A stretch of 64,000 bases of DNA from an uncultured bacterium (GTDB lineage: Bacteria > Patescibacteriota > Dojkabacteria > J137). The position numbers and the translations under genes are program-made. Of the stretch, positions 20,197-63,462 are shown in pieces (position 1 is the first letter of the stretch; every line of letters begins with the position of its first letter). A model generated the notes under the pieces. The model saw only the letters and a list, made by a program, of their open reading frames with translations, had not been told where the DNA came from and searched no databases. The stretch is taken from contig OY969472.1 of assembly GCA_963700155.1 (NCBI GenBank), forward strand, positions 598,431 through 662,430, given 5' to 3'.

Positions 20197-20216
20197 TAAT
20201 TTCTACCCATACTTGA

Positions 20217-23200: not shown

Positions 23201-23445
23201 GTTTATCAACAGGATAATTTTGATAAGTAAAAGTATTACTTGAAATTTTAGGTAAGTAACTAGAATTATCAGTTTCAAGAATAGTTTTGTATTGAAAATA
23301 TTGATTATTAGAAACGTTACTTAAGGCGAAAGTTGGTAAATCAGTAGATGTATTATTAGCATCAGAGTAGTAAGTATTAGAGGTTCCATCAGGTCCGATG
23401 AAGGATTCACCTGAACAAGCATTGTCATCACAAGAACGTACCTGA
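20217..23445. repeat. ~3.2-kb near-identical direct repeat, copy 2 (3' two-thirds of paralogue B)
   Basis: See copy 1. Identity extends through the conserved C-terminus 'ALDIVLKGLQDIFSFL'. Confidence 0.8.
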
Positions 23446-25157: not shown

Positions 25158-25169
25158 TATATATTTTAA

Positions 25170-28100: not shown

Positions 28101-29591
28101 AGATTGAGGTCTGTATGTTAAATCCATAGAAGTAGTAGGATTAACTGTTGGTTTATCAACAGGATAATTCTGATAAGTAAATGTATTACTAGAAATTTTT
28201 GGTAAATAACTTGCATTACCACTTTCTAGAGTAGCTTTATATTGAAAGTATTGATTACGGGTTAAAGATGATATATCGAAAGTGGCAGGTGAATTTGTCG
28301 TGTTATGGATTTCATCATAGTAACTACTTGAAGTTCCATCAGGACCAATAAAACTTTCGCCAGAACATGCATTATCATCGCATGATCTAATCTGGTATTT
28401 TACATTTTGAATTCCACGTTTATAAATATTAAGAATTTCAGTGTCCGATAAAATTCTGTTCCAAACAGCCACATCTTCAATTTGACCCTTGAAGTTGTTT
28501 AAGTAAGCATGAGAATATTGATTGTATACAGTACCTATAAGAAAACTAGAATAATATGCATTTAAAGTCTCAGTTCTTGAATTCTCTAGTTGTCCGTTTA
28601 CATATATATATCCATATCCTGTTGTACCATTACGGACACCAGTTATTAAGTACCAAACACCTGGTGTTAATGTGGTAGTTGACACAACTGAAGATCCATT
28701 ACTGCAGCCTGAAGGAAGTATGTCCATCCCAGCTTTACCAGTACTTCCTATGTTTATACCATATCCATACCAACAACTTATTGAGTCTGCTGCTTCCTTG
28801 CCTGCTATTGCCATAGTAGTCCCAATTTGTGTAATTTTTACCCATGCAGAAATAGTAAAGGTACTTATTCCTAATGACCCTCCATCACTTACTGTTCCAT
28901 AGTCACCGTTGCCATCTAGGTCTAATACCTTAGTTGGCCTATCTGAGTTTACAAATGCAGCATTCCCGCTGAGAGTTACCGAATGATTGTATCCGCTTGA
29001 ATCACTTGTATTATTCATATGCCATAAGCCAAGATTCCCGGTCATATCGATATTACCAGTTGAGTATCCTGATTCAGTTGCATGATTATTAGGCAATTCT
29101 TTTCCATAAGGTAACTCTGCACTCCAATTAAAGTTTTGCCACGCTACGCCATCTATGGCTGATGTGTCATATATTTTTGAGGTATAACTTCCTGATAGTG
29201 ACAAACTATCCAAGGTTAAATGCCCAGAAGAGTATTGAGTATTATTATATGTTCCTAAATCGAATTCAGATTGTGAATCATCAGTTGTATTTGTCTGTAT
29301 TTGTTGTAAAGATACATTTCCACCTGTGATTTGCATCTTGTTGCTGTCAGATAATGTGTAATCCGAAGGAGTAGAAAAATTCCATGAAAAACTAGTAGAG
29401 GCAAATAATTTTATATAAATTACAGGAATAATTAAGATAGCTATAAAAATAACAGTCAAAACGACATATGCTTTCCTGACCTTGTTTAAAGGATTTTTTT
29501 TGCCTAAATTTGTATGTAACATCTTCTTTAACATAATATATAGGTTTCCCCTATAAATCAACATAGATAATAAGGATAAATGAAAAATCAA
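25170..29591 (-). CDS. giant surface protein, paralogue C (1473 aa as listed; the true start is probably the internal Met near 29531)
   Basis: Same architecture as A and B but ~75-80% identical. It has the N-terminal 'LFASTSFSWNFSTPSDYTLSDSNKMQITGG' module, a LamG-like module, the 'KYQIRSCDDNACSGESFIGPDG' Cys linker, Fn3-like repeats and the C-terminus 'ALDIVLRGLQDIFSFL'. Confidence 0.7.
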   Translation of the reverse strand: MIFHLSLLSMLIYRGNLYIMLKKMLHTNLGKKNPLNKVRKAYVVLTVIFIAILIIPVIYIKLFASTSFSWNFSTPSDYTLSDSNKMQITGGNVSLQQIQTNTTDDSQSEFDLGTYNNTQYSSGHLTLDSLSLSGSYTSKIYDTSAIDGVAWQNFNWSAELPYGKELPNNHATESGYSTGNIDMTGNLGLWHMNNTSDSSGYNHSVTLSGNAAFVNSDRPTKVLDLDGNGDYGTVSDGGSLGISTFTISAWVKITQIGTTMAIAGKEAADSISCWYGYGINIGSTGKAGMDILPSGCSNGSSVVSTTTLTPGVWYLITGVRNGTTGYGYIYVNGQLENSRTETLNAYYSSFLIGTVYNQYSHAYLNNFKGQIEDVAVWNRILSDTEILNIYKRGIQNVKYQIRSCDDNACSGESFIGPDGTSSSYYDEIHNTTNSPATFDISSLTRNQYFQYKATLESGNASYLPKISSNTFTYQNYPVDKPTVNPTTSMDLTYRPQSIDHFCEGTLDGSSNCTTTSTKPTNTELYYQVCSDTVSNCNSNNTWKYWDGAAWSNASSSSNSNTASTINTNISIFRPSSKFFSFKSFLSSGGQNTPVLSDVSLDVTYDTTAPIQNATSINISDVNDGDWVKSKPTINWTEGDDNVNGSGILGYCIALDEAEPDNSSSINPATSAGILHGLDDGVTDTYCDFIATGDHVDLSSIPGLTLTTGKQYYFSIKAVDVVGNIWSGSSGDYQDLISFRYDNTPPTNPTFISMPSNFISTKDATITWPVGDSNAANDVGAGLDGLQYKIGSGGTWYGDLHTGSEDLMDLLVNDGTYTTDPTYDYPNLSDGNNIIYFRTLDLAGNVSSSTVNGLLKVNTTAPSEPQNLSVTPSDNTANSYAFDWDPPATYTGSVSAITYCYTVNTLPSSTTCTYTSAGVTSLSADAFANQPDTNTFYVVAKDEAGNINYSTNISITFTYSGEAPGIPLNPDVADISNKDTSEWKLAVTWSTPSNVGAGVSNYDVYRSTTASASCSSDFGDFNKVSTVLGTSYVDSGLSQQDYYYCVKACDSANNCSAVSSTVTKYPTGKYTSPADLISGPSLNAKTTTKGVISWVTDRRSDSKIQYGLSSGDYFEEEVGISAQVTAHTVTLNNLKAGTTYYYIVKWTDEDGNTGTSGEKSFTTDPPPVITNVKVTNVGIDSALIKFTSNNANLVKIYYGKTTGFGAVQELDTAFIESSYTAVLTELTDGVKYYFKINPTDTEGTEYQGTVLDFTTLPRPTVSNIQIQEVKNVAQPTIDVTWSSNTDISSIVSFYPADNPDLVKNVIDLDLKTDHKLEVATLNADTKYSLVVKGTDAIGNEATSEVHTFTTATDTRPPEISNIKIEAVNPDSQDSTAQIVVSWTTDELATSQVLYGEGTGGSFAQGTQIDRSLSLKHVVIISNLKPSSVYHLEAVSEDGSKNETLSNNIVTITPQRSENALDIVLRGLQDIFSFL

Positions 29592-34200: not shown

Positions 34201-34655
34201 GGGGATGTTTATTCGACAGTGAATTGCGGGTTTTAAAGCAAGTCAGAAGTTTATTAATTTCTTCTGTAAATCTCAAATTAATCGTTCCGTAAGGAATGTT
34301 TTGACAATAAACGTCAATAAAATTTCTAATGCATTTAACAGTGCTGTAAATGCTGTAGCTAGAGCTTTTGCTCCCAACTACAACTTATTTGTAGCCTAAG
34401 TTATTTGCAGTAGCTCGAATACAAAAGTAGAGCTACCGTTTGATTTTTCTTCTCTCGATGAGAAACTTCAGGCGAAACAAAGTCGGGATACAAGAAAAGT
34501 TTTTTAATTTATGAAACTTTTCCCAAGTTTAAAATAAATTCGGCATAAGTTTGTTTTTCTAGTTTTTAGAATTTATGCTGTAAAGAAAATTAGATAAACT
34601 TGTAAAACTTTAAGATTTTATATTTGCTGGACAGGGGTTTCCCTCATCTCCACCA
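34201..34655 (+). ncRNA. ssrA: tmRNA (ssrA)
   Basis: The 5' end GGGGATGTTTATTCGACAGTGAATTGCGGG parallels E. coli GGGGCUGAUUCUGGAUUCGACGGGAUUUGCG. The 5' GGGGATG pairs with 3' CATCTCC, including the G3:U70 wobble (Ala identity), and is followed by an encoded ACCA. An internal reading frame GCT..AAC TAC AAC TTA TTT GTA GCC TAA gives the tag '...(A)PNYNLFVA' (cf. ANDENYALAA). The T-arm looks unusually compact. Confidence 0.75.
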
Positions 34656-34784: not shown

Positions 34785-35645
34785 ATGGATATATTTACAA
34801 TTCTTTTTTATCAGCCGATTTATAATCTCCTGATTGTTCTATACAGATTGTTTTCAGACAATTTAGGACTTGCGATTATTATTGTTGCATTGCTTTCCAG
34901 ATTAATTACTTTGCCAATCACAATCAGGCAGATGAAAATGATGGGTAGTAACAAAGAAATGCAAAAGAAGATGAATGAGATAAAGAAGAAATATAAGAAC
35001 AATAAAGAAAAGTTACAGCAGGAACAGATGAAAATTCAATCAGAATATCTACCTTCACAACTTGCTGGATGTCTTCCAGCTATTCTTCAATTAGTCTTAT
35101 TTATAAATGTTTATAATGTTATAAATAACATCATTGCTCAAGGAGTAGAAAGTTTCAATGTTGTAGCATATTCATTTGTTCCAGGTTTTGATCCAAGTTA
35201 TCACTTGAATACTAATTTTTTAGGAATTTTTGATCTAAAAACTTCAGCAGCTTCGGTTGTACAAGCAGATGGAGCAGTTACTTTAGCTGTAGTTTTATAT
35301 TTAGGACTAATTGTATTAGTTGCAGCTTCTCAATATTTATCAATGAAATATATGACAGGTGGAAATATGATGATGCAATCTGATGATAAACAAAAAGAGA
35401 ATGATAAGAATAAATCAAAGAATAAAGACAAAAAAGATAAGGAAAAGCCAGAAGACTTTGCATCAATTGTTCAGCAATCTTCAAAACAAACGGCTTTCTT
35501 ATTTCCTATGATGATTGGTTTAATTTCTTACAATGTTGCTTCTGGTCTTGCTTTTTACTGGATTGCACAGAGTGGTTTTGTTATAATACAACAGTTTGTT
35601 ACAAAGCGGATTAATAAAAGCCAGATTCAGCCTAGTGTGGTATAA
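34785..35645 (+). CDS. yidC: membrane protein insertase YidC (short Gram-positive/CPR type) with a Lys-rich cytoplasmic insertion
   Basis: 'LLSRLITLPITIRQMKMMGSNKEMQKKMNEIKKKY...LPSQLAGCLPAILQLVLF' is the YidC/Oxa1 core; 5 TM. Confidence 0.8.
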   Translation: MDIFTILFYQPIYNLLIVLYRLFSDNLGLAIIIVALLSRLITLPITIRQMKMMGSNKEMQKKMNEIKKKYKNNKEKLQQEQMKIQSEYLPSQLAGCLPAILQLVLFINVYNVINNIIAQGVESFNVVAYSFVPGFDPSYHLNTNFLGIFDLKTSAASVVQADGAVTLAVVLYLGLIVLVAASQYLSMKYMTGGNMMMQSDDKQKENDKNKSKNKDKKDKEKPEDFASIVQQSSKQTAFLFPMMIGLISYNVASGLAFYWIAQSGFVIIQQFVTKRINKSQIQPSVV

Positions 35646-37270: not shown

Positions 37271-38428
37271 ATGTCAGATCAACAAAATATAAATAATACA
37301 TCAACAAAACCAACTCAAAGTGCTGCTTCACCAAATCTAGATTTAGATTATGAAATTAATGTTCTAAAGCAGAAAGTTGAATCTGCTAATTTACCAAAGG
37401 CTTTAAATGAGAAAGTAAATGGAATGATATTCCGTTTAATTAAAATGTCTCAAAAAGGAAATTTCTCACAGGAATTTGAACCGGTCTCTGAATATATAAA
37501 TTGGGTGGTTCAAATTCCGTTCGATAAGTTTAGTGATGACAATATTGATATTAATCATGCTAAAGAAATGTTGACTAAAAATCATTATGGACTTGAGGAA
37601 GTGAAGAACAGAATTATGGAATATCTTGCAGTTATAAAACTACATCAAGTCGAGAGCTCCCAAAGCAGCTCTGATGCAGAGCTCAGAGGAAGCTCATATA
37701 ATGCCCCAATTCTTTGTTTTGTCGGTATCCAAGGTGTTGGTAAAACATCTATGGCTAAGTCAATAGCTTCAGCTCTAGGTAGAGAATTCTCAAGGATTGC
37801 TTTGGGAGCTCTCGGTTCAGTTACTGAAATAAGAGGGATTTCAAAAGGTACGGTTGGTGCTGAGCCTGGGCAAATTATAAAAACACTTATCCGAGCTCAA
37901 GTAATGAATCCACTAATACTTCTTGATGAAATTGATAAAGTTAGCTCAGATACAGGTTTGAGATCCGATGTTATGGCAGCGCTATTAGAAATTTTAGATC
38001 CTGAGCAAAACTCAGCTTTTACGGATAAATATGTTGATTATCCAGTAAATCTTTCCAAAACAATATTTATCTGTACTGCAAATAATCTTGGAGGAATTTC
38101 AGCAGCTCTTTTGGATAGGCTTGAAATAGTTAGATTTGGAAGTTATACAGATGAAGAAAAAATTATTATAGCTAAAGATTATTTACTCCCTAAAGTTAGA
38201 AAAGCCACAGGGATAACAGAAGATCAATTATCGTTTGAGGATGATGTTTGGCCGTTAGTAGTCAGGCCTCTTGGTTTTGATGCTGGTGTCAGACAACTTG
38301 AAAGGACTTTAACTCAACTTGCTAGAAAAGTAGCACTTCAAATTGTGCAAGGTTTAACAAAGGGAGTGGTGCTAACAAAAGATAATTTTAGACAATATAT
38401 TCCAGAAGATTTTGGAGTTTATAGTTAG
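37271..38428 (+). CDS. Lon-like AAA+ ATPase lacking the S16 protease domain
   Basis: Collinear with the Lon A-domain. 'HYGLEEVKNRIMEYLAV' aligns with DHYGLEKVKERILEYLAV. Walker A 'GIQGVGKTSMAKSIASALGREF' is present. 'LLDEIDKVSSD' (Walker B), 'LLEILDPEQNSAFTDKY' and 'FICTANNL...LLDRLEIVRF' follow. The protein ends after the AAA module at 385 aa with no Ser-Lys protease domain. Confidence 0.65.
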   Translation: MSDQQNINNTSTKPTQSAASPNLDLDYEINVLKQKVESANLPKALNEKVNGMIFRLIKMSQKGNFSQEFEPVSEYINWVVQIPFDKFSDDNIDINHAKEMLTKNHYGLEEVKNRIMEYLAVIKLHQVESSQSSSDAELRGSSYNAPILCFVGIQGVGKTSMAKSIASALGREFSRIALGALGSVTEIRGISKGTVGAEPGQIIKTLIRAQVMNPLILLDEIDKVSSDTGLRSDVMAALLEILDPEQNSAFTDKYVDYPVNLSKTIFICTANNLGGISAALLDRLEIVRFGSYTDEEKIIIAKDYLLPKVRKATGITEDQLSFEDDVWPLVVRPLGFDAGVRQLERTLTQLARKVALQIVQGLTKGVVLTKDNFRQYIPEDFGVYS

Positions 38429-43234: not shown

Positions 43235-43543
43235 ATGGCAAAAACTGTAAAAGGTATAAAGCCAGTTGGCGAATATATTCTTGTAAAACCTGAAGAAGAT
43301 CAGGAACAAACAACTGCTTCAGGTTTGATAATTCAATCTTCCAGCAAAGGTGAGAGACCTCAAAAAGGAACAATCATTGCTTTAGGGAAAGGGAGAAGAG
43401 ATGAGAATGGAAAACTGGTTGAGTTTAATGTTTCAGAAGGTGATATTGTTATGTTTAAAAAATATTCTCCAGAAGAGATTGAATTAGATGGAGAAAAGCT
43501 ATTACTGATGAAAGAATCAGATATTTTAGCAATTATAGAATAA
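43235..43543 (+). CDS. groES: co-chaperonin GroES
   Basis: 'IKPVGEYILVKP...TTASGLII...GDIVMFKKY'; 102 aa. Confidence 0.9.
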   Translation: MAKTVKGIKPVGEYILVKPEEDQEQTTASGLIIQSSSKGERPQKGTIIALGKGRRDENGKLVEFNVSEGDIVMFKKYSPEEIELDGEKLLLMKESDILAIIE

Positions 43544-43570: not shown

Positions 43571-45205
<1,635 letters not shown>

Positions 45206-45214
45206 TCCAGGAAA

Positions 45215-45236
45215 ACCCCTCGAAAGAGGGGTTTTT
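45215..45236 (+). terminator. rho-independent terminator after groEL
   Basis: CCCCTC-GAAA-GAGGGG followed by TTTTTT. Confidence 0.8.
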
Positions 45237-45258
45237 TAATTTTTAACTAAAAAATTTT

Positions 45259-45858
45259 ATGACAAATAATAGTCTAGTACAGCAGCCAATAAAGAAAACT
45301 GCCTATATAGTTTATAATGATATTATAGATGAGCCTAGAATTCAGTGGTTTATGACACAATTAGGAGGGCTTTTCTCATCTAATAATTATGATAAATTTG
45401 TAATCTTAATTTCATCAAATGGTGGAGATCCAGCAGCAGGTTTGACAGCATATAATTTTTTAAGAAGTTTACCGCTAAAAGTAGTTACGCATAGTATTGG
45501 ATACGTACATTCCGCAGCAGTTATTCTTTTTCTAGCTGGAGAAGAAAGATACTCGTGTGAAGGTAGTACTTTCTTGATACATAGTATAGCATTTAACCTC
45601 CCAAATGGAGGCCAGATAACCCCAATTAATTCTGGAGATATAGATTCCGTAATCAAGGTAAATAATGAGACTGCGAGAAAGATATATAAAGAACGAACAA
45701 CTTTAACTGCACAAAAAATTACCGGATTGCTAAAATCTAACATATTACAAGATACCAAATTTGCTAAGGATTATAGTCTTATCAATGAAGTCAAACCTAT
45801 TGAAATTAAAGATGGTGATTTATTTGTTGTTAACTATATTGCCCAGGCTCCTAAGTAA
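45259..45858 (+). CDS. ClpP-family serine peptidase-like protein (divergent)
   Basis: Aligns to the ClpP core. 'ILISSNGGDPAAGLTAYNF' aligns with INSPGGSVTAGLAIYDT. 'GYVHSAAVILFLAGE' aligns with GQAASMGAFLLTAG (Ser retained). 'FLIHSI' aligns with MIHQP (His retained). A downstream Asp lies in 'QDTKF'. Confidence 0.55.
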   Translation: MTNNSLVQQPIKKTAYIVYNDIIDEPRIQWFMTQLGGLFSSNNYDKFVILISSNGGDPAAGLTAYNFLRSLPLKVVTHSIGYVHSAAVILFLAGEERYSCEGSTFLIHSIAFNLPNGGQITPINSGDIDSVIKVNNETARKIYKERTTLTAQKITGLLKSNILQDTKFAKDYSLINEVKPIEIKDGDLFVVNYIAQAPK

Positions 45859-45955
45859 ACTAGAATAGCTAGTCTATTTCTTACTAAGGCTGATTAGTGT
45901 AAAATTAGCTCAAGAAGCTATTTTAGCTTTTTGTTCTTAGCTCTTAGTTTAAAAC

Positions 45956-46288
45956 ATGTTCACATTCGCAATTAATTTTATTGTCTGGTGGTATCTAATA
46001 AAGTCTAGAGAATTCTTTACTTCAGAAGTCTTTGGTGGCTTTATATTCCAAATGAACTACACTAGAACTTTACCAATGGTGCGAAATTTTACTACACCAT
46101 TATTTAGAGATAGTTCATCTTTTGGCAAATCGATAAGTATTTTTATAAAATTTTGGTGGATAGGTTTTGGAACAATAGTAAGCTTAATAAAAATAATTCC
46201 CAAATTTCTAATATTTTTAGTGATTATTTCATTACCGATAATTCCGGTAATTCAATTCATTCTCTTTTTAACGAGAACTTTAGTATGA
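45956..46288 (+). CDS. small polytopic membrane protein (110 aa)
   Basis: Three or four hydrophobic helices; its stop overlaps the ATG of the following Clp ATPase (ATGA). Confidence 0.3.
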   Translation: MFTFAINFIVWWYLIKSREFFTSEVFGGFIFQMNYTRTLPMVRNFTTPLFRDSSSFGKSISIFIKFWWIGFGTIVSLIKIIPKFLIFLVIISLPIIPVIQFILFLTRTLV

Positions 46289-48882
46289 AAGTATTAACAG
46301 GTAAAAGACAACTTGCAACTTTTAAAAACTCATTAATCTATGTTGATTTTGATGAGCTCCTTAGATACAAAGGGGAGCGTTTATCAATTGTAAGAGCAGA
46401 GTACGGATTTGGTAGAATGTTTTTTTATGGTGGTTTATTCTTATTTTTCGGTTCTTTAATATTATTATTTCTTGCTGGTGAGTTGAAATTTAATGCTATC
46501 GTTCTGCCTATAGATATCTTGGAGTTAATGCCTAGTATTTCACTCCTCCCTATTACTTTTGGATTTTATTTATCAAGAAATAGAGATATTTTTGATCATA
46601 AAATAAAAGATAATTTGTCTGATGAAATAATCAGTAATTTTGCCTCACATGATGAAGTTACAAATAAAGAAATTGATATTTCTGTGCTAATGTCAATTAA
46701 ATTGAAGTCATTTATGGATTATGCATATTTTAATCATAATCAGGACTTTTTAATCGAAACTTTAAATTACGCGTTTTCCCAGAAGAGTAGCAATTTGTTC
46801 ATTGAAAAAAGGCTTGGATTAAATCTGGGAAGTTTGCGTGAAGCTTCAATTAAATATTTCTTAGATAAAAATACTTCATTTGATGCAATTTATTTTGATC
46901 TATTCATAAGACTTTTTGATGAAGCAGTGAAATTTGAGAGTGAAAAAATTGATGATGATATCTTATTCTTTACCTTACTTAAATATTATCTTGTAAATGT
47001 TTTATTAGATTTTGGAATAACAGAACTTGAACTAGAAGGGTTAAGACGTTGGTTTAAAAATGAAAATAAGAAAAACGAGTACTACAGAAGATGGCAGAGA
47101 TTATCTAAACTAAAACCTAAAGGAGCAATCAACAGTACTTATACTTCAAAGGCAACCCCAACTCTAGATCAGTATGGGATTGATTTTACAAATTCAATTT
47201 CAAATAGAAATTTTGTACTTACATTAGGAAAAGAGTATGAAATGGGTTTGATTTTAAATATGCTCCAGAGGGAGAATGGAACAGCGATTATGATTTTAGG
47301 AGAACCAGGGGTAGGGAAGACTCAATTTATTAAACATCTCGCAACAAGAATGGTTGTCGAAGATGTTCCAAAAACATTACAAGATTATAGATTAGTAGTT
47401 TTAGATTTAAACAAGATATTTACACAAACTTCAACAGTTGAAAATTTCAAAGTGTCAATTCAGAAAATGGTAGATGAGGTCAAAAACTCAGGAAATATTA
47501 TTATTTGCTTCGAAGAAATTAGTCAAATATTCAATATTAGGGATGAGGGGAAACTTGAAGTTATTAATCTTTTAACAAATTCTATCGATAATTCACATAT
47601 AAAAATCCTAGCAACTGCTACACCTGAAAATTACAAAGATTATATTCAACCGAATAAATCGTTTGCTTCAAAGTTCGAAAATATTACACTAAAAGAACCA
47701 GATCCTAATGTACTTTTACAAATTCTGCTTGATGAAATACCAAGGCTAGAATCTAAATATAGGGTTAGTATTCAAATTACCGCTATAAAAAGAATCGTTG
47801 AATTTGGATATAAGTTTGATTATGAACGTGCGATGCCTGATAAAGGAATAGATTTGCTTGAAGAAGCTATTGTTAATGCACAAGCAAAAGGTTTGAACTA
47901 TCTAGACTTAGATACAGTTGATGAACTATTTAAAAATAAAACAGGAGTTAATGTTGGAACAATAAGTGAAGCTGAATCCAGTAATTTGCAGAAACTTGAA
48001 AGTAAAATGCATGAAAGAGTAATAGGTCAGGATGATGCTATTCATGCTATAGCCTCAGCGATCAGAAGATCTAGATCGGGATTAAGTAATAAGAAAAGAC
48101 CGATTGCTTCATTCTTATTTTTTGGACCAACAGGTGTAGGAAAAACTGAAGTAGCCAAAACCTTGGCTGAAACTTATTATGGTGATGAAAATTTAATGAT
48201 CAGGATAGACATGTCTGAGTATCAAGAAGATAAAAATCTAGATAGATTGATAGGGTATACCGATGAGAAAGGAACTTTTAATGGGGGATATTTAACTGAG
48301 AAGGTAAAATCAAGACCATTTTCACTAATCCTTTTTGATGAAATAGAGAAGGCCAATAGAAAAGTTTTAGACTTGTTTTTACAAATTCTTGATGATGGTT
48401 TTGTAACTGATGGATTGGGAAGAAGAGTAGACTTTACAAATACAATAATAATAATGACTTCTAATGCTGGAACAAAAGAAATTACAGAGCTTTTGAATCA
48501 GGGGGTGAAATATCATGATATAGAAAGAAAAGTATTAAATATTTTAAGAGATAATTTTAAAATTGAATTTCTTAATAGATTTGATAAGTTGGTAATGTTT
48601 AAAAGCTTAAGTCAAAATGAGGTTAAAAAAATAGTTTCTTTGATGTTGAATCAGTTAAATGATAAATTAGGTGAACAAGGGATTTCAATTAGCTGGAACA
48701 AAGATACAGAAAAAGAAATTTCTCAGATAGGATATAGTGAAATTTATGGAGCTAGAGAGCTAAGAAGAGTTATACAGGAACAAATTGAAGATCAATTGGC
48801 AGATTTAATAATCACAGGAGATTTGAAGAGTGGTAAAACTGCTGTATTTGAAGGGGTAAAAGTGGTAAAAATTAATGATTAG
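46285..48882 (+). CDS. ClpA/ClpC-type double AAA+ unfoldase with an unusual ~330-aa N-terminal domain containing TM helices
   Basis: The probable start is the ATG at 46285 (MKVLTGKRQ...); the 46153 start lies in a region overlapping the previous ORF. D1 is 'ILGEPGVGKTQFIKHLATRMVVEDVPKTLQDYRLVVLDL' with 'MPDKGIDLLEEA'. D2 is 'FGPTGVGKTEVAKTLAE', 'SLILFDEIEKANRKVLDLFLQILDDGFVTDGLGRRVDFTNTIIIMTSN'. The linker is short (ClpA/C-like, not ClpB). The N-terminal TMs are 'RMFFYGGLFLFFGSLILLFLAG' and 'LMPSISLLPITFGFYL'. Confidence 0.75.
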   Translation: MKVLTGKRQLATFKNSLIYVDFDELLRYKGERLSIVRAEYGFGRMFFYGGLFLFFGSLILLFLAGELKFNAIVLPIDILELMPSISLLPITFGFYLSRNRDIFDHKIKDNLSDEIISNFASHDEVTNKEIDISVLMSIKLKSFMDYAYFNHNQDFLIETLNYAFSQKSSNLFIEKRLGLNLGSLREASIKYFLDKNTSFDAIYFDLFIRLFDEAVKFESEKIDDDILFFTLLKYYLVNVLLDFGITELELEGLRRWFKNENKKNEYYRRWQRLSKLKPKGAINSTYTSKATPTLDQYGIDFTNSISNRNFVLTLGKEYEMGLILNMLQRENGTAIMILGEPGVGKTQFIKHLATRMVVEDVPKTLQDYRLVVLDLNKIFTQTSTVENFKVSIQKMVDEVKNSGNIIICFEEISQIFNIRDEGKLEVINLLTNSIDNSHIKILATATPENYKDYIQPNKSFASKFENITLKEPDPNVLLQILLDEIPRLESKYRVSIQITAIKRIVEFGYKFDYERAMPDKGIDLLEEAIVNAQAKGLNYLDLDTVDELFKNKTGVNVGTISEAESSNLQKLESKMHERVIGQDDAIHAIASAIRRSRSGLSNKKRPIASFLFFGPTGVGKTEVAKTLAETYYGDENLMIRIDMSEYQEDKNLDRLIGYTDEKGTFNGGYLTEKVKSRPFSLILFDEIEKANRKVLDLFLQILDDGFVTDGLGRRVDFTNTIIIMTSNAGTKEITELLNQGVKYHDIERKVLNILRDNFKIEFLNRFDKLVMFKSLSQNEVKKIVSLMLNQLNDKLGEQGISISWNKDTEKEISQIGYSEIYGARELRRVIQEQIEDQLADLIITGDLKSGKTAVFEGVKVVKIND

Positions 48883-48908: not shown

Positions 48909-49271
48909 GTGAAAAAATTAAAAGGAACAATATTAACTTTACTAGTTGTTTATATAGGTTATCCTGCAATTGTATTTGCACAAAATGTTGGGCAAGTAAC
49001 AATACCAAATCCCTCAGGTTATAATAGTCTTGAAGAATTGATTAATGCAGGATTAAGTTTATTGAGACCACTTTTTATAGTTACTTTTGCGGCAATGATT
49101 ATGTATGGAGCTTGGACTTGGTTAACTTCACAAGGAGATGCAGAAAAGATTGGAAGAGCTCGAAAAATAATCATTGCCGCAGTCATAGGTTTTGCAATTG
49201 CTGTATTGGCACCATCTATAGCCGGAATTGTTGCAAACTTTATTAAATTACAAGGATTTAATGGAATATAA
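48909..49271 (+). CDS. small secreted two-helix hairpin protein, paralogue 1 (VirB2/TrbC-like topology; candidate pilin)
   Basis: Signal peptide 'MKKLKGTILTLLVVYIGYPAIVFA', then 'FAAMIMYGAWTWLTSQGDAEKIGRARKIIIAAVIGFAIAVLAPSIAGIV'. This is a TM, a short charged loop, and a second TM. Confidence 0.45.
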   Translation: MKKLKGTILTLLVVYIGYPAIVFAQNVGQVTIPNPSGYNSLEELINAGLSLLRPLFIVTFAAMIMYGAWTWLTSQGDAEKIGRARKIIIAAVIGFAIAVLAPSIAGIVANFIKLQGFNGI

Positions 49272-50106
49272 ATTTAGTAATAAATTAAAAAGCTTTACAA
49301 TAATAATCTTTATAGGATTCATTTTTGTATTCGGATCGTTTATTTATACCCATAAAGCATATGCTTCAATAATATGTTCAGGTGATACAGGGCCTTGTTC
49401 TGGAATGGCTGTTGGAAGGGATGGATGTTATTCAGGTGGTATTCCTAGTGTTTGTGAACCAAAGGATTTTAATTCTGGACCTACAAATAGTGCTGTTAGT
49501 TGTCAATGCGTACAATCAAATCAAGATGTCTTACAACAAATTGATACATGGAACAATAAATATGCAACTTCGTCAGCATCATCTTGTGAAAATGGTATTC
49601 CTTCAGCTTGTACTGATAGTTATGTACCTGATTTTGCATGTATTAATAAGAAGATTATAGATCCTGGATATGCTTGCTGTGAAAATACATGCATAGATTC
49701 TTCAGGCAATCCAACTTCAGGAGTATCTGATCCAGGGTTAGAGAAATATAGAGAGTTTGGGATATTAGGATTAACAGTTAAAATAACTCCTGAAAGTATA
49801 CCATCACTTATTAATGTATTGTTATCTACTTTCTTGGGAATAATCGCTCTATATGCATTGTTTAGAGGAATTTATGTAGCGGCTATAAAAAGAACTCAAG
49901 CTACAGAAGAAAATCTTGAAGCTGTTAATAAGGAGCTGACAAATATAGTGATAGCATTTGTTATTGCTTTTGCATCAATCTTTATTATTCAGTTAGTATT
50001 TAATTTACTTGGACTAGGGTCTTTAAATAAATTTAATGTAAACTTTACGAATGAAGATACTAGCGGACCTGCTTTAGTTATAAATAGTAATGGCTCTCAA
50101 CAATAA
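49261..50106 (+). CDS. hairpin-protein paralogue 2 with an N-terminal Cys-rich (16 Cys) ectodomain
   Basis: The probable start is the ATG at 49261, overlapping the paralogue-1 stop. The ectodomain is 'CSGDTGPCSGM...CQCVQ...CENGIPSACTD...ACCENTCID'. The C-terminal hairpin is 'LSTFLGIIALYALFRGIYVAAIKRTQATEENLEAVNKELTNIVIAFVIAFASIFII'. Confidence 0.45.
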   Translation: MEYKFSNKLKSFTIIIFIGFIFVFGSFIYTHKAYASIICSGDTGPCSGMAVGRDGCYSGGIPSVCEPKDFNSGPTNSAVSCQCVQSNQDVLQQIDTWNNKYATSSASSCENGIPSACTDSYVPDFACINKKIIDPGYACCENTCIDSSGNPTSGVSDPGLEKYREFGILGLTVKITPESIPSLINVLLSTFLGIIALYALFRGIYVAAIKRTQATEENLEAVNKELTNIVIAFVIAFASIFIIQLVFNLLGLGSLNKFNVNFTNEDTSGPALVINSNGSQQ

Positions 50107-50123
50107 ATTAGTTTATTTATATT

Positions 50124-50663
50124 ATGAAAAAAAATATTTTAAAAATTTCAGGTTTTATTTTTCTTTTTGTGACATTAACCTTAAATTTGATAGTATATGC
50201 TGCTAATAATGATGCTAATTTAAATGTAGGTGATCTTAATCTACAGTCAATAAGAATTCCACTTTTCCTGCCATTTGATCCTAAATTCGGATCCTCTTTA
50301 ACAGTATTTTCATGGATAACTTATATTGGGATAATTGCTACTGGAGCTATAATTGTTTTCTGGATATATTTAATCATTAGAACTGCAGTAAAAGCAATGC
50401 AGAGTCATGGAGAAGCTGATGCATTGGCAGATGTAAGTAAAAGATTTAGATCAATTTTTATAGGAATGTTTATAACATTCCTTTTCCCAATAGTATTAAG
50501 TGTAATAGGTGTTTTATTAGGAGTAGGTACGATATTCGCTTGGCCAAAAATGTTTAGTCGTTGTGATAATCATAGCGGAAGTACAGGTTATGAGTACTAT
50601 TTTCAAGCGTATCTTGAGTTAGGTGGGGATGATGCTGATGTTCGTTGCGGTTATACAACTTAA
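50124..50663 (+). CDS. hairpin-protein paralogue 3
   Basis: Signal peptide, then 'IIATGAIIVFWIYLIIRTAVKAMQSHGEADALADVSKRFRSIFIGMFITFLFPIVLSV', then a Cys-containing tail. Confidence 0.45.
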   Translation: MKKNILKISGFIFLFVTLTLNLIVYAANNDANLNVGDLNLQSIRIPLFLPFDPKFGSSLTVFSWITYIGIIATGAIIVFWIYLIIRTAVKAMQSHGEADALADVSKRFRSIFIGMFITFLFPIVLSVIGVLLGVGTIFAWPKMFSRCDNHSGSTGYEYYFQAYLELGGDDADVRCGYTT

Positions 50664-50694
50664 ATAATAATTAATCCTTAAATATTAATATAAA

Positions 50695-51162
50695 TTGAAA
50701 AAACCTAAGAATTTAAAATCTAACCTAGCTAAAAGTTTACTCTATTTTTCTATAATTGGATTACTATTTCCAGTTATAGCTTACGCAGATGATAATACAG
50801 GAGGATTGTGCGGAATTCTTCCTTGTCAATTAGCATCTCCATGTCTTGGGACAAACTGTGGTGGTGATTCACTTTCGCTTGTTGGAACTTTATTAGAATT
50901 TGCTTTAAGTTTTATATTTGTCGGGATTTTAATTTTTGGAATATGGCTAATCCTTCAAGCTACCTTAAAGATAATTAGAAGTGAGGGGAATGAAGAGCAA
51001 GTTCAATCTGGGTACAAACTAATTAAAGGAGCTTATACTGGAATAGTATTAATATTTGTTGGAATAATTGGATTAGTTGTAGTTTTTGCATTATTTAATG
51101 CAACTGATATTTTTAAAGTAGGGACGGGAAATATACCAGAATTATCAGCACCAACTCAGTGA
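50695..51162 (+). CDS. hairpin-protein paralogue 4
   Basis: Signal peptide, a CGILPCQ...CLGTNCGG Cys knot, then 'FVGILIFGIWLILQATLKIIRSEGNEEQVQSGYKLIKGAYTGIVLIFVGIIGLVVV'. Confidence 0.45.
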   Translation: MKKPKNLKSNLAKSLLYFSIIGLLFPVIAYADDNTGGLCGILPCQLASPCLGTNCGGDSLSLVGTLLEFALSFIFVGILIFGIWLILQATLKIIRSEGNEEQVQSGYKLIKGAYTGIVLIFVGIIGLVVVFALFNATDIFKVGTGNIPELSAPTQ

Positions 51163-51242
51163 TTAAATTATAAAGTAATAACTTGATTTCATCTTTATAT
51201 TGTGTTTTAATGATGAAAATTAATATATGTTAGTTTAAAAAA

Positions 51243-51674
51243 ATGCCAGTATTATTAGCTCAAGCAGGAACAGCTCCATCAGGGAATTTAGTTTGTAAAG
51301 TGTTTCCTTTTCTACAGAATATAAAATTTGATTATATTCAACAACTTTGTGGAACTGGACAAGAAATTACATCTCAAACAGCTGTTCAACAAGGAGTTCT
51401 ATTAGTGCAAACATTAGTCAGTCTTATTTTTGTAGGAATAATAATAATTGCAGTTTATGTAATTATTAAAGCTGCAATCAAGTATATTAGAAGTGAAGGA
51501 AATGATGAAAAGATTCAAGAAGCTCAGAAAGCAATTAAGAGTGTATTTATTGGTTTAGTTGCTTTATTTGTAGGAATAATAGGTTTAGTATTAATACTTG
51601 TAATCTTCAATGCATTAGGTGCAGTAAATAGCGCTACAGTAAATGATACTGGAGATATTGTTCGGCCTACATAA
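51243..51674 (+). CDS. hairpin-protein paralogue 5
   Basis: 'FVGIIIIAVYVIIKAAIKYIRSEGNDEKIQEAQKAIKSVFIGLVALFVGIIGLVLI' is near-identical in pattern to paralogue 4; there is no obvious signal peptide at the listed start. Confidence 0.4.
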   Translation: MPVLLAQAGTAPSGNLVCKVFPFLQNIKFDYIQQLCGTGQEITSQTAVQQGVLLVQTLVSLIFVGIIIIAVYVIIKAAIKYIRSEGNDEKIQEAQKAIKSVFIGLVALFVGIIGLVLILVIFNALGAVNSATVNDTGDIVRPT

Positions 51675-51708
51675 TAAATACTTAAAAGTAGATTTTAAAA
51701 GGTAAGAA

Positions 51709-52488
51709 ATGCAGATGTTCTCAAAAAAGATTTTAATAACATCGCTTCTTACCTTTTTGTTTTTAAATTTCTTTCTTACATTTGTTTCAGCTCAAATTCA
51801 AACGACTCCTTTTTCAGGAAATGATGCTTCCAGCTATCAATGTATTGGGAAAAACGGACAAATTGAGCCTAATGCAAAAGTTCAAAAAGATTCAGTAACT
51901 AATAATTTTGTTTGTTATAACGCAGATGGAAGTATTATAGATAGAGATGGAAATGGCAAACCGGATCAAGCAATATTAAAACCTGTTGCCCTTGAACAAA
52001 TTCAAATTTGGTTTGTAAGAATAATTTATGTTATTTGGGCATTGGTTGGAACTTATTCATTCTTATTATTGGTATATTTAGGCTATCAATATATGCTTAG
52101 AGGAGGGACCTCAGATGAAGAATTAGTTAAACTACGAAAAAGAATAATCTACTATGTAATAGGATTTGCATTGGTATTTTTAGCAATTCCAATTCTTTCA
52201 ACTGTTTTTAGGCTTTTAAATATTAATACTGCAGTAGATTGTTATAATGTTAATATCCCAACTTTTCAGTTTTTCTTTGCAACACTTTGTACAGATCCAA
52301 ATGAAATTATTGTAGGTGAGCCATGTAACGTAGAAAACTGGCAAAGCGGAGCTGCTGTAGGGTTAGCATGTCCTACTAATGGTGAGGCGCATGGGTGTCC
52401 TACAGATTCATTACCTTTGATTTGTTATTACTGTAGCGGGAACATATGGAATAAAGGGACAATTTTCAACTCGCAATGTAGGCAATAA
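51709..52488 (+). CDS. hairpin-protein paralogue 6 with a C-terminal Cys-rich domain
   Basis: Signal peptide 'MQMFSKKILITSLLTFLFLNFFLTFVSA'. The hairpin is 'VIWALVGTYSFLLLVYLGYQYMLRGGTSDEELVKLRKRIIYYVIGFALVFLAIPIL'. The Cys-rich tail is 'CYNVN...CTDPN...CNVEN...CPTNGEAHGCPTDSLPLICYYCSG'. Confidence 0.45.
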   Translation: MQMFSKKILITSLLTFLFLNFFLTFVSAQIQTTPFSGNDASSYQCIGKNGQIEPNAKVQKDSVTNNFVCYNADGSIIDRDGNGKPDQAILKPVALEQIQIWFVRIIYVIWALVGTYSFLLLVYLGYQYMLRGGTSDEELVKLRKRIIYYVIGFALVFLAIPILSTVFRLLNINTAVDCYNVNIPTFQFFFATLCTDPNEIIVGEPCNVENWQSGAAVGLACPTNGEAHGCPTDSLPLICYYCSGNIWNKGTIFNSQCRQ

Positions 52489-59873: not shown

Positions 59874-60329
59874 ATGAAAAGCTTAAGCAGTAACAAAAAA
59901 GCACACTTTGATTATGAAGTTTTAGATAAAATTGAAGCAGGGATTTCCTTATTTGGATGGGAAGTTAAATCAATAAAAGCTGGTTCAATGTCTTTATCGT
60001 CTTCATTTGTAATAATCAGAGATGGTGAGGTTTATATAATCGATAGCTTTGTCCCTTCATGGAAATCTGCACCAAAAGAGAGTAAAGAAGTTGAGAATCG
60101 AAAGAGGAAATTATTAATGACAAAATCAGAGATACATAGCCTTGAAGGAAAATTAAAACAAACTGGATTTTCTGCTGTTCCTTTAGAGATTTATGAAAAT
60201 GAAAAAGGGATAATAAAAGTTACTGTTGCTGTTGTAAGGGGTAAAAAAAGATTTGATAAGAGAAGGAAGTTAAAAGAGAAAGATTTAAAAAGAAGAGTGG
60301 AGTCTGAAAGAAAACAATATAATTTTTAA
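59874..60329 (+). CDS. smpB: SsrA-binding protein SmpB
   Basis: 'FDYEVLDKIEAGISLFGWEVKSIKAG' and basic C-terminal tail; 151 aa. Confidence 0.85.
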   Translation: MKSLSSNKKAHFDYEVLDKIEAGISLFGWEVKSIKAGSMSLSSSFVIIRDGEVYIIDSFVPSWKSAPKESKEVENRKRKLLMTKSEIHSLEGKLKQTGFSAVPLEIYENEKGIIKVTVAVVRGKKRFDKRRKLKEKDLKRRVESERKQYNF

Positions 60330-61017: not shown

Positions 61018-63462
61018 ATGCTAGGTTCTTCCAATATTTTTGATACGTCAATTTTAATAACAATTGTAATTGGACTGTTAGTTCTTCTTGTTATTGCGTT
61101 CGTAATTATTATAGGTGTGAATAGATTCTATAAAAGTATAAAAGAGAGCATCTTAAAAGAAAAAAATTTAGGATTGGTTTTCTATGAAGTCAGGTTGCCG
61201 AATGTTAATGAAGTTGAAATCAAAGCAGCAGAACAAATGTTTACAGGTTTAATTGGTATCGGAGAAAAACTTACAGGCTTAAAAAAGTATTTCGGTGCAA
61301 AGACTTTTGTAAGTTTTGAAGTTGTAGCTTTTAAAGAGAGTATAAAGTTTTTTGTAGTTTGTCCAAAGCGAATAGCCTCGGTAGTTGATAGGCAAATAAA
61401 TGGAACATATCCTACTGCAGAGATAATAAAAGTAAAGGAGTACAATTTATTCCCTGAAGATGGATACGTAGCTTCTACAGCTTTACAGCTTGAAAAAGAG
61501 TACAGATATCCAATCCAAACTTATGAAGAGCTCCCAGTTGATACTATTGCGACTTTAACTGATGCATTCAGTAAATTACAAGAAGGAGAAGCAGCTGCAT
61601 TCCAATTGATTATTTCACCCGCTGGCTCAGAATGGAGAAATCAATCAAGAGAGTATGTAAAGAAAATGCGTGAAGCTCCAACTGATGAAGAAGGCAAAAA
61701 GAAAGTCAATGTTGATGATGAGGCATTAAATTTAATTGATCAAAAGATTCAAAAATCCGGATTCTTTGCTAACGCAAGGTTAATTGTTGTTTCAAATGAC
61801 AAATACTCAGCTGATTCACACTTAGCAAATATTTTAAGTTCTTTTGATCCTTTTACAAAGGAAGGGAGTAATCGCTTTAAGAAGGTTAAATCGGATAAAT
61901 TAAAGAACTTTGCTACAGATTTTGTTTATAGAATTCCAAGAGAAGGTATGATTTTAAATACCGCAGAACTTGCGACTTTGTTTCACTTTCCTAATAGAAA
62001 TATAAAGACACCTTATATTCAATGGCTTTTATCTAAAAGGGAACCAGCACCTGATTTTGTTACGAGCAGATATGATAAGGATTATATGTATGTTGGACGA
62101 AATACATATAGAGGGCAGACTAGAGAAGTTTTCTTAAAACCAGAAGATAGATTAAGGCATTTTTATGTCATTGGACAAACTGGTACTGGTAAATCTGTGT
62201 TTATGTCAGGAATGATGATAAGAGACATGAAATTAGGTCATGGATGCGGATATATTGATCCACACGGAACAGACGTTGAAAAGATCATGCAGCAAATTCC
62301 TCCAGAAAGAGTAGAGGATGTTGTTATTTTTGATCCTGCTGATTTGGATAGACCAGTGGGTTTAAATATGCTTGAATTTAATTCAGAGGCTCAAAGAACC
62401 TTGGTAATTAATGAGATGCTTAATATATTTGATACTCTTTATAATCTTAAAGTTACTGGTGGACCAATGTTTGAGCAGTATTTTAGATATGCAATCATGC
62501 TTTTAACAGAAGATCCTGAGTCGGGTTCAACTTTAATGGAAGTGCCAAAAGTATTCGCTGATGAAGGATATAGAGCTTATAAGCTTTCGAAATGTAAAGA
62601 CCAGGAAGTCATAGATTTCTGGAAAAAGCAAGCAGAGCAAGCTGGTGGAGATGTTTCTTTAAAGAATGTTACACCATATGTAACTTCGAAAATGGCAAGC
62701 TTTTTATCAAATGCATACGTAAGACCAATTATTGCACAGCAACAATCTACTATAAAATTCAAAGAGATAATGGATCAACAAAAAATCCTTTTAGTAAAGC
62801 TTTCCAAAGGCAAGATTGGAGATTTTAATGCATCTCTTTTGGGAATGGTAATGATAGGTAAGCTTTTAATTGCAGCTCTTGAAAGAGAAGGGACAGCTGA
62901 AAAAGATAGAAAGCCTTTCTATCTTTACATTGATGAGTTTCAAAACTTCTTGACTGATGGAATTATGATTATCCTTTCTGAAGCTAGAAAATATCGATTA
63001 GCATTAACAATAGGACATCAGTTCTTAGGACAGTTAACAAGAGAAGGGGGAAATACTAAGATTAAAGATGCAGTTTTTGGAAATGTAGCTAATAAAGCAA
63101 TTTTCAGAGTTGGAGAAGAAGATTCTCCATTCTTAAGAAAAGTAATAGGTGAAGAGCTTCTTGAAGAAAAAGATTTACAGCAAGTTGAAAACTTTAACTT
63201 TTATCTAAAGATGCTTGTTGATGGAAGACCGACACCTGCATTCTCGGTTAATACTTTCTATAAAAGTATGTCACCATATGATATGTTAGGAGATCCAAAT
63301 GTAGAAATAGCTGAAGTTGCAAGACAGATTTCAAGATTGAAGTATGGAAAAGATAGAAATATTGTTGAGAATGAGATTAAGCTTAGAGGAACCTTTATAA
63401 AAGAGAAGGAAGATGATGGTAAAGGTAAAAATTCATTATTTGGTGGCTTTGGAGGATTCTAG
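61018..63462 (+). CDS. membrane-anchored FtsK/HerA-superfamily ATPase of the type IV secretion family (VirD4/TraG coupling-protein-like; VirB4/TraE-like not excluded)
   Basis: N-terminal TM 'ILITIVIGLLVLLVIAFVIIIGV'. Walker A is 'FYVIGQTGTGKSV', followed by 'GYIDPHGTDVE...VVIFDPADLDRPVGLNMLEF' (cf. T4CP DPKGD...NPL). Walker B is 'FYLYIDEFQNF'. The family-typical 'ARKYRLALTIGHQ' R...Q motif is present. 814 aa. Confidence 0.55.
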   Translation: MLGSSNIFDTSILITIVIGLLVLLVIAFVIIIGVNRFYKSIKESILKEKNLGLVFYEVRLPNVNEVEIKAAEQMFTGLIGIGEKLTGLKKYFGAKTFVSFEVVAFKESIKFFVVCPKRIASVVDRQINGTYPTAEIIKVKEYNLFPEDGYVASTALQLEKEYRYPIQTYEELPVDTIATLTDAFSKLQEGEAAAFQLIISPAGSEWRNQSREYVKKMREAPTDEEGKKKVNVDDEALNLIDQKIQKSGFFANARLIVVSNDKYSADSHLANILSSFDPFTKEGSNRFKKVKSDKLKNFATDFVYRIPREGMILNTAELATLFHFPNRNIKTPYIQWLLSKREPAPDFVTSRYDKDYMYVGRNTYRGQTREVFLKPEDRLRHFYVIGQTGTGKSVFMSGMMIRDMKLGHGCGYIDPHGTDVEKIMQQIPPERVEDVVIFDPADLDRPVGLNMLEFNSEAQRTLVINEMLNIFDTLYNLKVTGGPMFEQYFRYAIMLLTEDPESGSTLMEVPKVFADEGYRAYKLSKCKDQEVIDFWKKQAEQAGGDVSLKNVTPYVTSKMASFLSNAYVRPIIAQQQSTIKFKEIMDQQKILLVKLSKGKIGDFNASLLGMVMIGKLLIAALEREGTAEKDRKPFYLYIDEFQNFLTDGIMIILSEARKYRLALTIGHQFLGQLTREGGNTKIKDAVFGNVANKAIFRVGEEDSPFLRKVIGEELLEEKDLQQVENFNFYLKMLVDGRPTPAFSVNTFYKSMSPYDMLGDPNVEIAEVARQISRLKYGKDRNIVENEIKLRGTFIKEKEDDGKGKNSLFGGFGGF

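Follow-up and report, generated by a model that had tools for sequence, protein, structure and literature searches.

A ClpP-like gene beside a membrane-anchored Hsp100 operon in Dojkabacteria: partners or neighbours?

In a stretch of 64,000 nucleotides from an uncultured member of the Dojkabacteria (Patescibacteriota; assembly GCA_963700155.1, contig OY969472.1, positions 598,431 to 662,430; hereafter the window, G+C about 31%), a gene for a ClpP-like peptidase lies downstream of groES and groEL and ahead of a gene for a large ATPase of the Clp/Hsp100 type. An earlier note, made from the letters of this DNA, had paired the two products as a peptidase and its membrane-anchored unfoldase. Do these genes encode a Clp protease tethered to the membrane, or do they merely lie next to each other?

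Comparison with related loci pointed to two unrelated things side by side: an operon for a small membrane protein and an anchored Hsp100 (45956-48882), which is found across the Patescibacteria, and a passenger gene for the peptidase. We hold this reading as a whole with moderate confidence. The anatomy of the Hsp100 and its partnership with the small protein are held with high confidence.

The peptidase gene and its slot

The genes and intergenic elements concerned are as follows.

43235-43543, + strand: groES ORF (open reading frame); upstream context in Dojkabacteria, outside the module
43577-45205, + strand: groEL ORF; upstream context in Dojkabacteria, outside the module
45210-45237, + strand: strong intrinsic terminator 3′ of groEL, a 12-bp stem followed by a T-run
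45259-45858, + strand: ClpP-superfamily peptidase ORF, 199 aa; an orphan accessory gene in a variable slot
45859-45955, + strand: spacer of 97 nt between the peptidase gene and the small-protein/Hsp100 operon
45956-46288, + strand: gene for the 110-aa small membrane protein, the conserved partner of the Hsp100
46285-48882, + strand: gene for the membrane-anchored Hsp100, 865 aa, with a start codon that overlaps the stop codon of the preceding gene

The slot between groEL and the small-gene/Hsp100 operon was visible in six related Dojkabacteria loci (L001, L002, L004, L005, L092 and L093), and a ClpP-like gene occupied it in none of them. In the closest relative, L092, the slot was empty (263 nt). 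Elsewhere it held a 94-aa ORF (L001), a 203-aa ORF with a VirD4-like gene (L002), a DUF4145 gene with a 75-aa ORF (L004), a Fic gene on the opposite strand (L005) or a 161-aa ORF on the minus strand (L093). The region is variable, and the peptidase is specific to this genome. Nor was a ClpP-like gene found beside the ATPase in any of the 80 other loci inspected from the candidate phyla radiation (CPR). Judged from gene content, the peptidase gene is strain-specific cargo in a variable slot and not the partner of the ATPase.

The interval 45206-45955 and its equivalents in the six relatives look like an insertion hot spot for accessory genes. In the window, the groEL terminator sets the peptidase gene apart upstream, and the 97-nt gap sets it apart from the ATPase operon. 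A weak promoter-like site lies ahead of that operon at 45839-45866. The RNA fold of the spacer (45856-45960) was unremarkable (z = -1.5) with no matching Rfam family, and a search of the window for the CIRCE/HrcA operator gave zero matches.

The peptidase passed the Pfam CLP_protease threshold (E=5.9e-17; 62.6 bits, gathering score 20.2) but scored far under all NCBIfam ClpP cut-offs (TIGR00493: 27.7 bits, cut-off 308.6; best match: 53 bits, cut-off 228). Its match to PHROG head-maturation proteases (E=3.5e-16) was on par with the Pfam ClpP score, and its Ser-His core was 56-58% identical to phage head-protease genes. By these scores it is as close to phage head-maturation proteases as to cellular ClpP. 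Of the candidate Ser/His/Asp positions proposed earlier, the first two are there as Ser85 and His108. The column of the catalytic Asp reads Asn161, opposite N172 of Listeria ClpP1 in alignments to Protein Data Bank (PDB) entries, which leaves the canonical triad of ClpP (MEROPS S14) incomplete. Just eight homologues were found, all of them distant; Ser and His were invariant and the Asp column was not conserved. Two homologues had neighbourhoods suggestive of mobile elements or toxin-antitoxin loci: Peptidase_U49 and SNase genes amid small ORFs without annotation, or an adjacent MqsA/HTH gene.

Alignments of the peptidase began at ClpP residues 12-28, in keeping with a shortened N-terminus in a protein of 199 aa overall. 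Its closest PDB relatives were the ClpP1 proteins of Pseudomonas plecoglossicida (PpClpP1, 9UXT) and Listeria (LmClpP1, 4JCQ). PpClpP1 has a truncated N-terminus, carries Ser-His-Pro as its triad and fails to bind ClpX (PMC12900304). The peptidase shares with these two and with phage head-maturation proteases a short N-terminus, the retained Ser-His pair and a third residue other than Asp, which in LmClpP1 is likewise Asn. It differs from the two ClpP1 proteins in that identity is only 26-40% and that its own family has no conserved residue at the Asp position. On present alignments it is an N-terminally short Ser-His type of the ClpP superfamily, met in phage or mobile contexts. PADLOC assigned it to no defence system, and neither a second, canonical ClpP paralogue nor capsid genes were found within the window.

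A two-component Clp protease of peptidase and anchored ATPase, tethered to the membrane in an FtsH-like niche, would account for the adjacency of the two genes on one strand downstream of groESL and for the conserved Ser and His in a protein that passes the Pfam threshold; Ser-His ClpP variants without Asp can keep some activity (PMC12900304). This pairing is contradicted by the absence of a ClpP-like gene beside the ATPase in 6/6 Dojkabacteria and 80/80 other CPR loci, by the terminator and the 97-nt gap, by the coupling of the ATPase to another gene, and by the deletion of the ClpP-docking loop across the ATPase family (see below). The peptidase probably also lacks the N-terminal axial region, and its nearest solved relative, PpClpP1, is the one that binds no ClpX. 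We consider that comparative genomics has already largely refuted a tethered Clp protease here, and its probability is next to negligible.

The anchored Hsp100 and its small partner

All three ORFs that the earlier note had placed downstream of groES and groEL were confirmed (45259-45858, 45956-46288 and 46285-48882), with the ATPase at 865 aa rather than 866. The ATG at 46285 is the right start of the Hsp100 because 57 full-length relatives of 845-865 aa align with it from residue 1. An upstream TTG start at 46153, giving 909 aa, was rejected on the same length range and because the extension would overlap the conserved small gene. The public Hsp100 call in the databases (P0001, 908 aa, identical over the aligned length) uses this TTG and covers the 3′ part of the small gene (46153-46284). 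The 110-aa protein has no entry in the protein collection, its gene being uncalled in this genome, and the annotation appears to have missed a conserved partner gene.

The translational coupling of small gene and ATPase was borne out, as the start codon overlaps the preceding stop in the sequence ATGA. In the small protein, an N-terminal helix bears a WWY motif, the loop N-x-F-x-P-[ML]-[FY] ... G-[KR]-x-[IL]-[SG] is conserved, and the hydrophobic helical hairpin at the C-terminus keeps a Pro, mostly as Leu-Pro. Its AlphaFold2 (AF2) model (mean confidence, pLDDT, 95.1) comprises a helix at 2-35, the conserved loop at 44-54 and helices at 55-92 and 95-109. It had been described as polytopic; it is a membrane protein, but two transmembrane helices with an amphipathic N-terminal helix are likelier than a clearly polytopic fold. 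It matched nothing in Pfam, NCBIfam, PHROGs or PADLOC, and Foldseek gave no meaningful match to the model.

Homologous ORFs of 105-111 aa lie directly 5′ of the ATPase gene, often overlapping it, in all six related Dojkabacteria loci. In L009-L011, from other Patescibacteria, a 117-125-aa ORF precedes an anchored Hsp100 with a recognizable Clp_N domain and shares the WWY motif, N-x-F-x-P-M-[FY] and the Pro-bearing C-terminal hairpin. A full HMMER scan with the small protein gave 46 clusters, essentially all of 63-143 aa; a protein of 1877 aa with seven matching stretches (P0158) was a tandem low-information repeat and was set aside as an artefact. Loci were scanned for the small gene in one genome per species with a three-sequence alignment, an eight-sequence version being too divergent, and 80 were kept. 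In 73 of these, an Hsp100 of 860-935 aa with N-terminal transmembrane segments was encoded, mostly within a few nucleotides of the small gene; 3 more were confirmed by tblastn, and the rest end at contig edges. Small gene and Hsp100 were thus adjacent in every untruncated locus among the 80. As far as gene order can tell, the small protein is a true, obligate partner of the anchored Hsp100.

Two narrow sequence patterns found relatives of the small protein in at least 528 species-level genomes. Their named sources were all Patescibacteria, and the annotations all read 'hypothetical protein'. Many third-party-annotation (TPA) metagenome-assembled genomes labelled 'uncultured Gammaproteobacteria bacterium' (L012, L013, L015, L017 and others) carry the module together with typical CPR neighbours, and this label looks wrong.

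The traits of the module recur in the window: a small membrane protein (105-125 aa in the family) encoded upstream with the WWY and N-x-F-x-P-M-[FY] motifs, and an ATPase with a transmembrane hairpin, a degenerate D1, an intact D2 with a short, non-GYVG loop, no ClpP loop and no M-domain. The parts of the ATPase gene are listed here.

46303-46347, + strand: N-terminal beta-hairpin, aa 7-21, cytoplasmic (AF2 strands 7-13 and 16-21)
46378-46587, + strand: transmembrane hairpin, helices aa 32-63 (core 45-63) and 78-96 (hydropathy, AF2)
46657-47109, + strand: divergent Clp_N-fold domain, aa ~125-275 (structure comparison, hhalign)
47110-47190, + strand: conserved linker into D1, L-K-P-x-G-x-[IVM]-N-x-x-[YF]-T-S-x-x-T-P-x-L-D (in the window LKPKGAINSTYTSKATPTLDQYGIDFT), aligned with ClpC 156-178
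47221-47904, + strand: D1 AAA+ module, with Walker A GEPGVGKT at 47299-47322
47419-47451, + strand: D1 pore loop without Tyr, KYRGEFE being replaced by TSTVENF
47497-47523, + strand: D1 Walker B, which reads FEE
47659-47679, + strand: D1 arginine-finger site, SK, ERRF being replaced by ASKF
47962-48600, + strand: D2 AAA+ module, catalytically intact
48124-48147, + strand: D2 Walker A
48244-48300, + strand: D2 pore loop, non-GYVG (RLIGYTDEKGTFNGGYLTE)
48325-48354, + strand: D2 Walker B, DEIEKA
48460-48534, + strand: position of the ClpP-docking loop, shortened (SNAGTKEITELLNQGVKYHDIERKV), with [ILV]-G-[FL] deleted
48565-48579, + strand: D2 arginine finger, EFLNR
48607-48843, + strand: D2-small domain, with sensor-2 GARELRR at 48748-48768

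Hydropathy gave two hydrophobic segments near the N-terminus (cores at aa 45-63 and 72-94). In the AF2 model of aa 1-312, built on a 26-sequence alignment (pLDDT 84.7, predicted TM-score 0.76), a hairpin (7-21) precedes the helices 32-63 and 78-96, and residues from about 125 to 275 form a helical domain. In 57/57 Dojkabacteria relatives and 71/74 other members, the N-terminal part has one or more hydrophobic segments, and in most it has two. This conserved hairpin upholds the earlier description of a membrane-anchored Hsp100-type ATPase with at least two transmembrane helices. A conserved Y-L-x-R-[DN]-[RK] motif follows the second helix on the cytoplasmic side. Because basic residues flank the hairpin at both ends, including YLxRDR after helix 2, an N-in/C-in topology would fit.

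The N-terminal region had been thought to replace Clp_N. Pfam indeed found no Clp_N in the window ATPase, and a sequence profile of its N-terminal 312 aa gave nothing significant against the PDB, with a weak match of 198-247 to ClpC 8-60. Structure comparison of the model with known N-domains scored 9.3 for HSP101, 8.2 for ClpB, 8.1 for ClpC2, 8.0 for Hsp104, 7.6 for ClpV and 7.1 for ClpA; Foldseek agreed on a Clp_N fold at TM-scores of 0.53-0.55 with E-values that were not significant. Profile-profile comparison (hhalign) with the N-termini of other Patescibacteria members gave 99.8% probability over 283 columns, and Pfam detected Clp_N in 11 of 14 such N-termini. From these results, we conclude that the Clp_N domain of class I Clp/Hsp100 proteins is kept in divergent form, at aa ~125-275, behind an added transmembrane hairpin. 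The replacement claim falls with it. The earlier note had staked its view on membrane helices being found and a standard Clp_N repeat being absent: the helices are real, and a Clp_N domain is there, although a non-standard one.

Many members outside the Dojkabacteria (P0059, P0061, P0062, P0064, P0065 and others) carry two CXXCXGXG motifs ahead of the transmembrane hairpin. Pfam DnaJ_CXXCXGXG was found in 4 of the 14 N-termini, and the CxxCxG motif occurs twice in 12 of the 74 other members. This DnaJ-type zinc finger sits upstream of the region aligned by hhalign, and its equivalent in Dojkabacteria is the cysteine-free hairpin.

Behind the N-terminal region, Pfam recognized PF00004 (AAA, aa 335-451), PF17871 (AAA_lid_9, 478-536), PF07724 (AAA_2, 605-768, E=2.7e-54) and PF10431 (ClpB_D2-small, 775-853), the D1, D2 and D2-small composition of a class I Clp/Hsp100 protein; a weak Torsin match covered aa 565-633. 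The two modules had been called canonical, which holds for the catalytic set of D2 but not for D1, where FEE, ASKF and TSTVENF stand in place of the elements of a competent ClpA/ClpC/ClpE D1; the D2 pore loop is non-GYVG. Motifs were tallied over 131 family members, 57 from Dojkabacteria and 74 from other Patescibacteria. In D1, the Walker A lysine was kept in 128/131, arginine fingers in 0/131, and the pore-loop Tyr was absent across the family; the Walker B Glu was Asn in 65 of the 74 non-Dojkabacteria members and variable in Dojkabacteria. By these motifs D1 probably binds nucleotide but is catalytically degenerate. In D2, Walker A, Walker B, the arginine finger and sensor-2 were 100% conserved. 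Its pore loop has 7-11 residues against the canonical 12 and lacks the Tyr of GYVG. A Tyr or Phe stands at the position before LTE, canonically Gln, in 68/73 and 45/54 members, and this residue (Tyr669 in the window ATPase) is the sole candidate substitute for the pore aromatic.

The ClpP-docking loop is missing, as had been suspected. A 7-residue gap in the ATPase lies opposite FAGFGGS of Staphylococcus aureus ClpC (RFAGFGGS), where the window reads ELLNQGVKY, and the loop is deleted in 129/131 family members; matches to Firmicutes ClpC show LGF or VGF there. The ATPase has no M-domain, because one uninterrupted alignment pairs it with residues 188-729 of ClpA, itself without an M-domain; its D1 and D2 alignments to ClpC overlap, with no insert. 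Pfam found neither UVR (PF02151) nor the SMAX1-type NBD (PF23569). With two AAA+ modules of Hsp100 type and no match to Peptidase_M41, the ATPase differs from FtsH, in which a single AAA+ module is fused to an M41 zinc peptidase. ClpB (TIGR03346) was the best NCBIfam match, at 471.6 bits against a cut-off of 1232; the best PDB sequence matches were ClpC (6em8, E=2e-117), ClpB and ClpA. PADLOC returned only generic AAA models.

Like ClpC and ClpA, the ATPase thus has Clp_N, D1, D2 and D2-small, colinear with ClpA and with no M-domain inserted. Unlike them, it has a transmembrane hairpin, a deleted ClpP loop, no UVR/M-domain, a D1 lacking arginine fingers, pore Tyr and a reliable Walker B, and a D2 loop other than GYVG. 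With ClpB and Hsp104 it shares the absence of a ClpP loop and very similar D2 modules, but it is membrane-anchored and lacks their coiled-coil M-domain, both pore tyrosines and an active D1.

Genomic setting of the module

In Dojkabacteria, an FtsA/PilM-like gene and one of about 700 aa come first, then groES and groEL, the slot, the small gene and the Hsp100 gene; an array of type IV secretion system (T4SS) pilin genes follows, and a gene of about 500 aa and one with a SpoIID domain close the conserved order. Cpn10 and Cpn60 genes lie upstream of the module in L001, L004, L005, L092 and L093; L002 shows only the 3′ end of groEL. Two further features belong to this context in the window.

48909-52488, + strand: array of VirB2/TrbC-like 'T4SS_pilin' paralogues, directly 3′ of the Hsp100 gene; context only
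61018-63462, + strand: VirD4/TrwB-like coupling protein, 9 kb beyond the pilin array

The array holds at least three tandem paralogues by Pfam, probably about six, each with a two-transmembrane C-terminal module. It accompanies the module in all Dojkabacteria loci seen and only there, being absent beside the module in L009-L011. The pilin linkage was therefore dropped as a functional clue and is read as lineage-specific synteny, as other lineages show unrelated neighbours.

In L009, the module follows rnpA-yidD-yidC. A canonical Hsp100 gene lies beside the module in divergent orientation in 52 of the 80 scanned loci (its product has KFRGEFE, DELH, ERRF, a long M-domain, GYIG and TIGF), and in 69 of the 80 a Glycos_transf_4 gene comes after the module. 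The small gene is the sole constant neighbour of the Hsp100 across lineages. The recurrent chaperone and insertase neighbours suggest a role in proteostasis.

Several other observations were made on the way. The canonical Hsp100 of Falkowbacteria-like loci (L011, 2845-5487 on the minus strand; L022; L083) combines a long M-domain of ClpB type with a TIGF loop for ClpP docking, as a ClpB/ClpC hybrid. In the window, 37271-38428 (+) encodes a 385-aa protein with a Lon AAA+ module alone (TIGR00763 positions 255-567 of 795, E=1e-108; Pfam Lon_lid); the protein lacks a protease domain and nearly all of the N-domain, and the next 470 nt are non-coding before a minus-strand gene. A tmRNA gene at 34201-34655 (+) (Rfam, 53 bits) lies directly 5′ of yidC at 34785-35645 (+), and smpB (59874-60329, +) is in the same window, 25 kb from the tmRNA gene. 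Four large tandem genes at 15214-29591 (-), encoding 507-1660 aa, probably specify surface proteins (Laminin_G_3 in 3/4, fn3, Pur_ac_phosph_N in 3/4). Beside them are a MacB-type ABC transporter (12953-15163) and a protein with Big_5 and Peptidase_C39-like domains (6757-8748).

What the anchored Hsp100 may do

Substrates of Hsp100 machines enter at the face formed by the N-domains and D1. Because the N-terminal anchor would hold this entry face at the membrane, the likeliest job of the ATPase is the extraction or remodelling of membrane proteins. The anchored Hsp100 would form a hexamer, and its anchor, together with the small partner, would keep the entry face on the membrane's inner side. 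The D1 ring would bind nucleotide with neither hydrolysis nor substrate grip, and ATP hydrolysis in D2 would pull, extract or remodel membrane-embedded or membrane-associated proteins. The products would be freed to the cytosol for GroEL or other proteases rather than fed to a ClpP chamber, and the small protein may act as co-anchor, adaptor or substrate gate. We favour this D2-driven, ClpP-independent extraction with release to the cytosol only tentatively. The working geometry would be that of an FtsH- or Msp1-like dislocase built from an Hsp100. With FtsH and Msp1/ATAD1 the ATPase shares an N-terminal anchor and, presumably, a ring whose entry face lies at the membrane. It differs from them in its AAA+ clade, in having two AAA+ modules instead of one, no M41 peptidase and no canonical pore-loop aromatic, and in its dedicated small membrane partner. 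A more specific version, in which small protein and Hsp100 form a 6:6 or similar membrane dislocase confined to CPR, an analogue of Msp1 or of Cdc48 in endoplasmic-reticulum-associated degradation, with one active ring and a relocated pore-loop aromatic, is possible but doubtful.

Some points weigh against this picture. Neither ring has a canonical aromatic pore loop, and any model based on threading is the weaker for it. Apart from the small gene, the neighbours vary by lineage and so point to no particular substrate. The peptidase, too, could still process products released by the ATPase without docking to it.

The main rival of the extraction mechanism starts from the first of these points. 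In a non-threading ATP switch, similar to Torsin with LAP1, a D2 clamp would regulate or assemble the small protein or another membrane complex. Torsins resemble Hsp100 D2 modules, have no aromatic residues in their pore loops and require membrane cofactors, and the ATPase likewise is a degenerate Hsp100-type protein at a membrane, with a dead D1, no canonical aromatic pore loop in either ring and an obligate small membrane partner, as Torsin has LAP1 or LULL1. Yet, unlike in Torsin, the D2 of the ATPase has an arginine finger of its own, and this finger, sensor-1, sensor-2 and Walker B are 100% conserved; the ATPase is also an Hsp100 with two rings and Clp_N. Both Clp_N and the DnaJ zinc finger of some lineages are substrate-handling elements, and the base of the D2 loop has a conserved aromatic. 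We therefore regard such a switch as unlikely.

Two further proposals are more remote than the switch, and we judge both very unlikely. In an export motor, a hexamer with 12 transmembrane helices and the small protein would push proteins such as pilin-like ones out, as Plasmodium HSP101 does in PTEX. The T4SS_pilin array, always 3′ of the module in Dojkabacteria, and the VirD4-like gene nearby speak for it, and the ATPase would resemble HSP101 as a ClpP-independent Hsp100 at a membrane with dedicated membrane partners. HSP101, however, does not span the membrane; it has an M-domain and active D1 and D2 with pore tyrosines, and its D2 exit side faces the membrane pore. Here the N-terminal anchor should bring the entry face, rather than the D2 exit side, to the membrane; the pore loops of the ATPase are weak; and the pilin synteny is absent in other module-bearing lineages. 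The other proposal, an ordinary ClpB-like disaggregase that is tethered and acts with DnaK on cytosolic aggregates, would agree with the heat-shock gene neighbourhood and with ClpB as the best NCBIfam match (471 bits). That score is far under the ClpB cut-off, the M-domain that couples ClpB and Hsp104 to DnaK is missing, D1 is dead and both pore tyrosines are gone, and a canonical Hsp100 paralogue coexists beside the module in many genomes.

The searchable literature, which does not include subscription journals, held no description of a membrane-anchored Hsp100 in CPR; a bioRxiv paper on a 'Pam pilus' proved unrelated to the module. No curated family model fits the module. Databases label the ATPase 'ClpC' or 'AAA family ATPase' and its partner 'hypothetical'. 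A likely annotation trap is corrected here, as the neighbouring ClpP-like gene invites the reading 'Clp protease', which comparative genomics rejects.

Hsp100 machines are textbook soluble unfoldases, and extraction by membrane-anchored AAA+ proteins is normally credited to FtsH in bacteria and, in eukaryotes, to Msp1 or Cdc48. The lineage described here is a membrane-integral Hsp100 without ClpP docking, M-domain or D1 catalysis, with a remodelled D2 pore loop and tied to a small protein. The module offers a case for how an Hsp100 with one active ring works and for membrane-protein quality control in genome-reduced bacteria. If the dislocase reading is true, a large part of bacterial diversity would run an undescribed machine of membrane proteostasis, and this machine may take part in the turnover of surface or pilus proteins behind the episymbiotic life of these bacteria.

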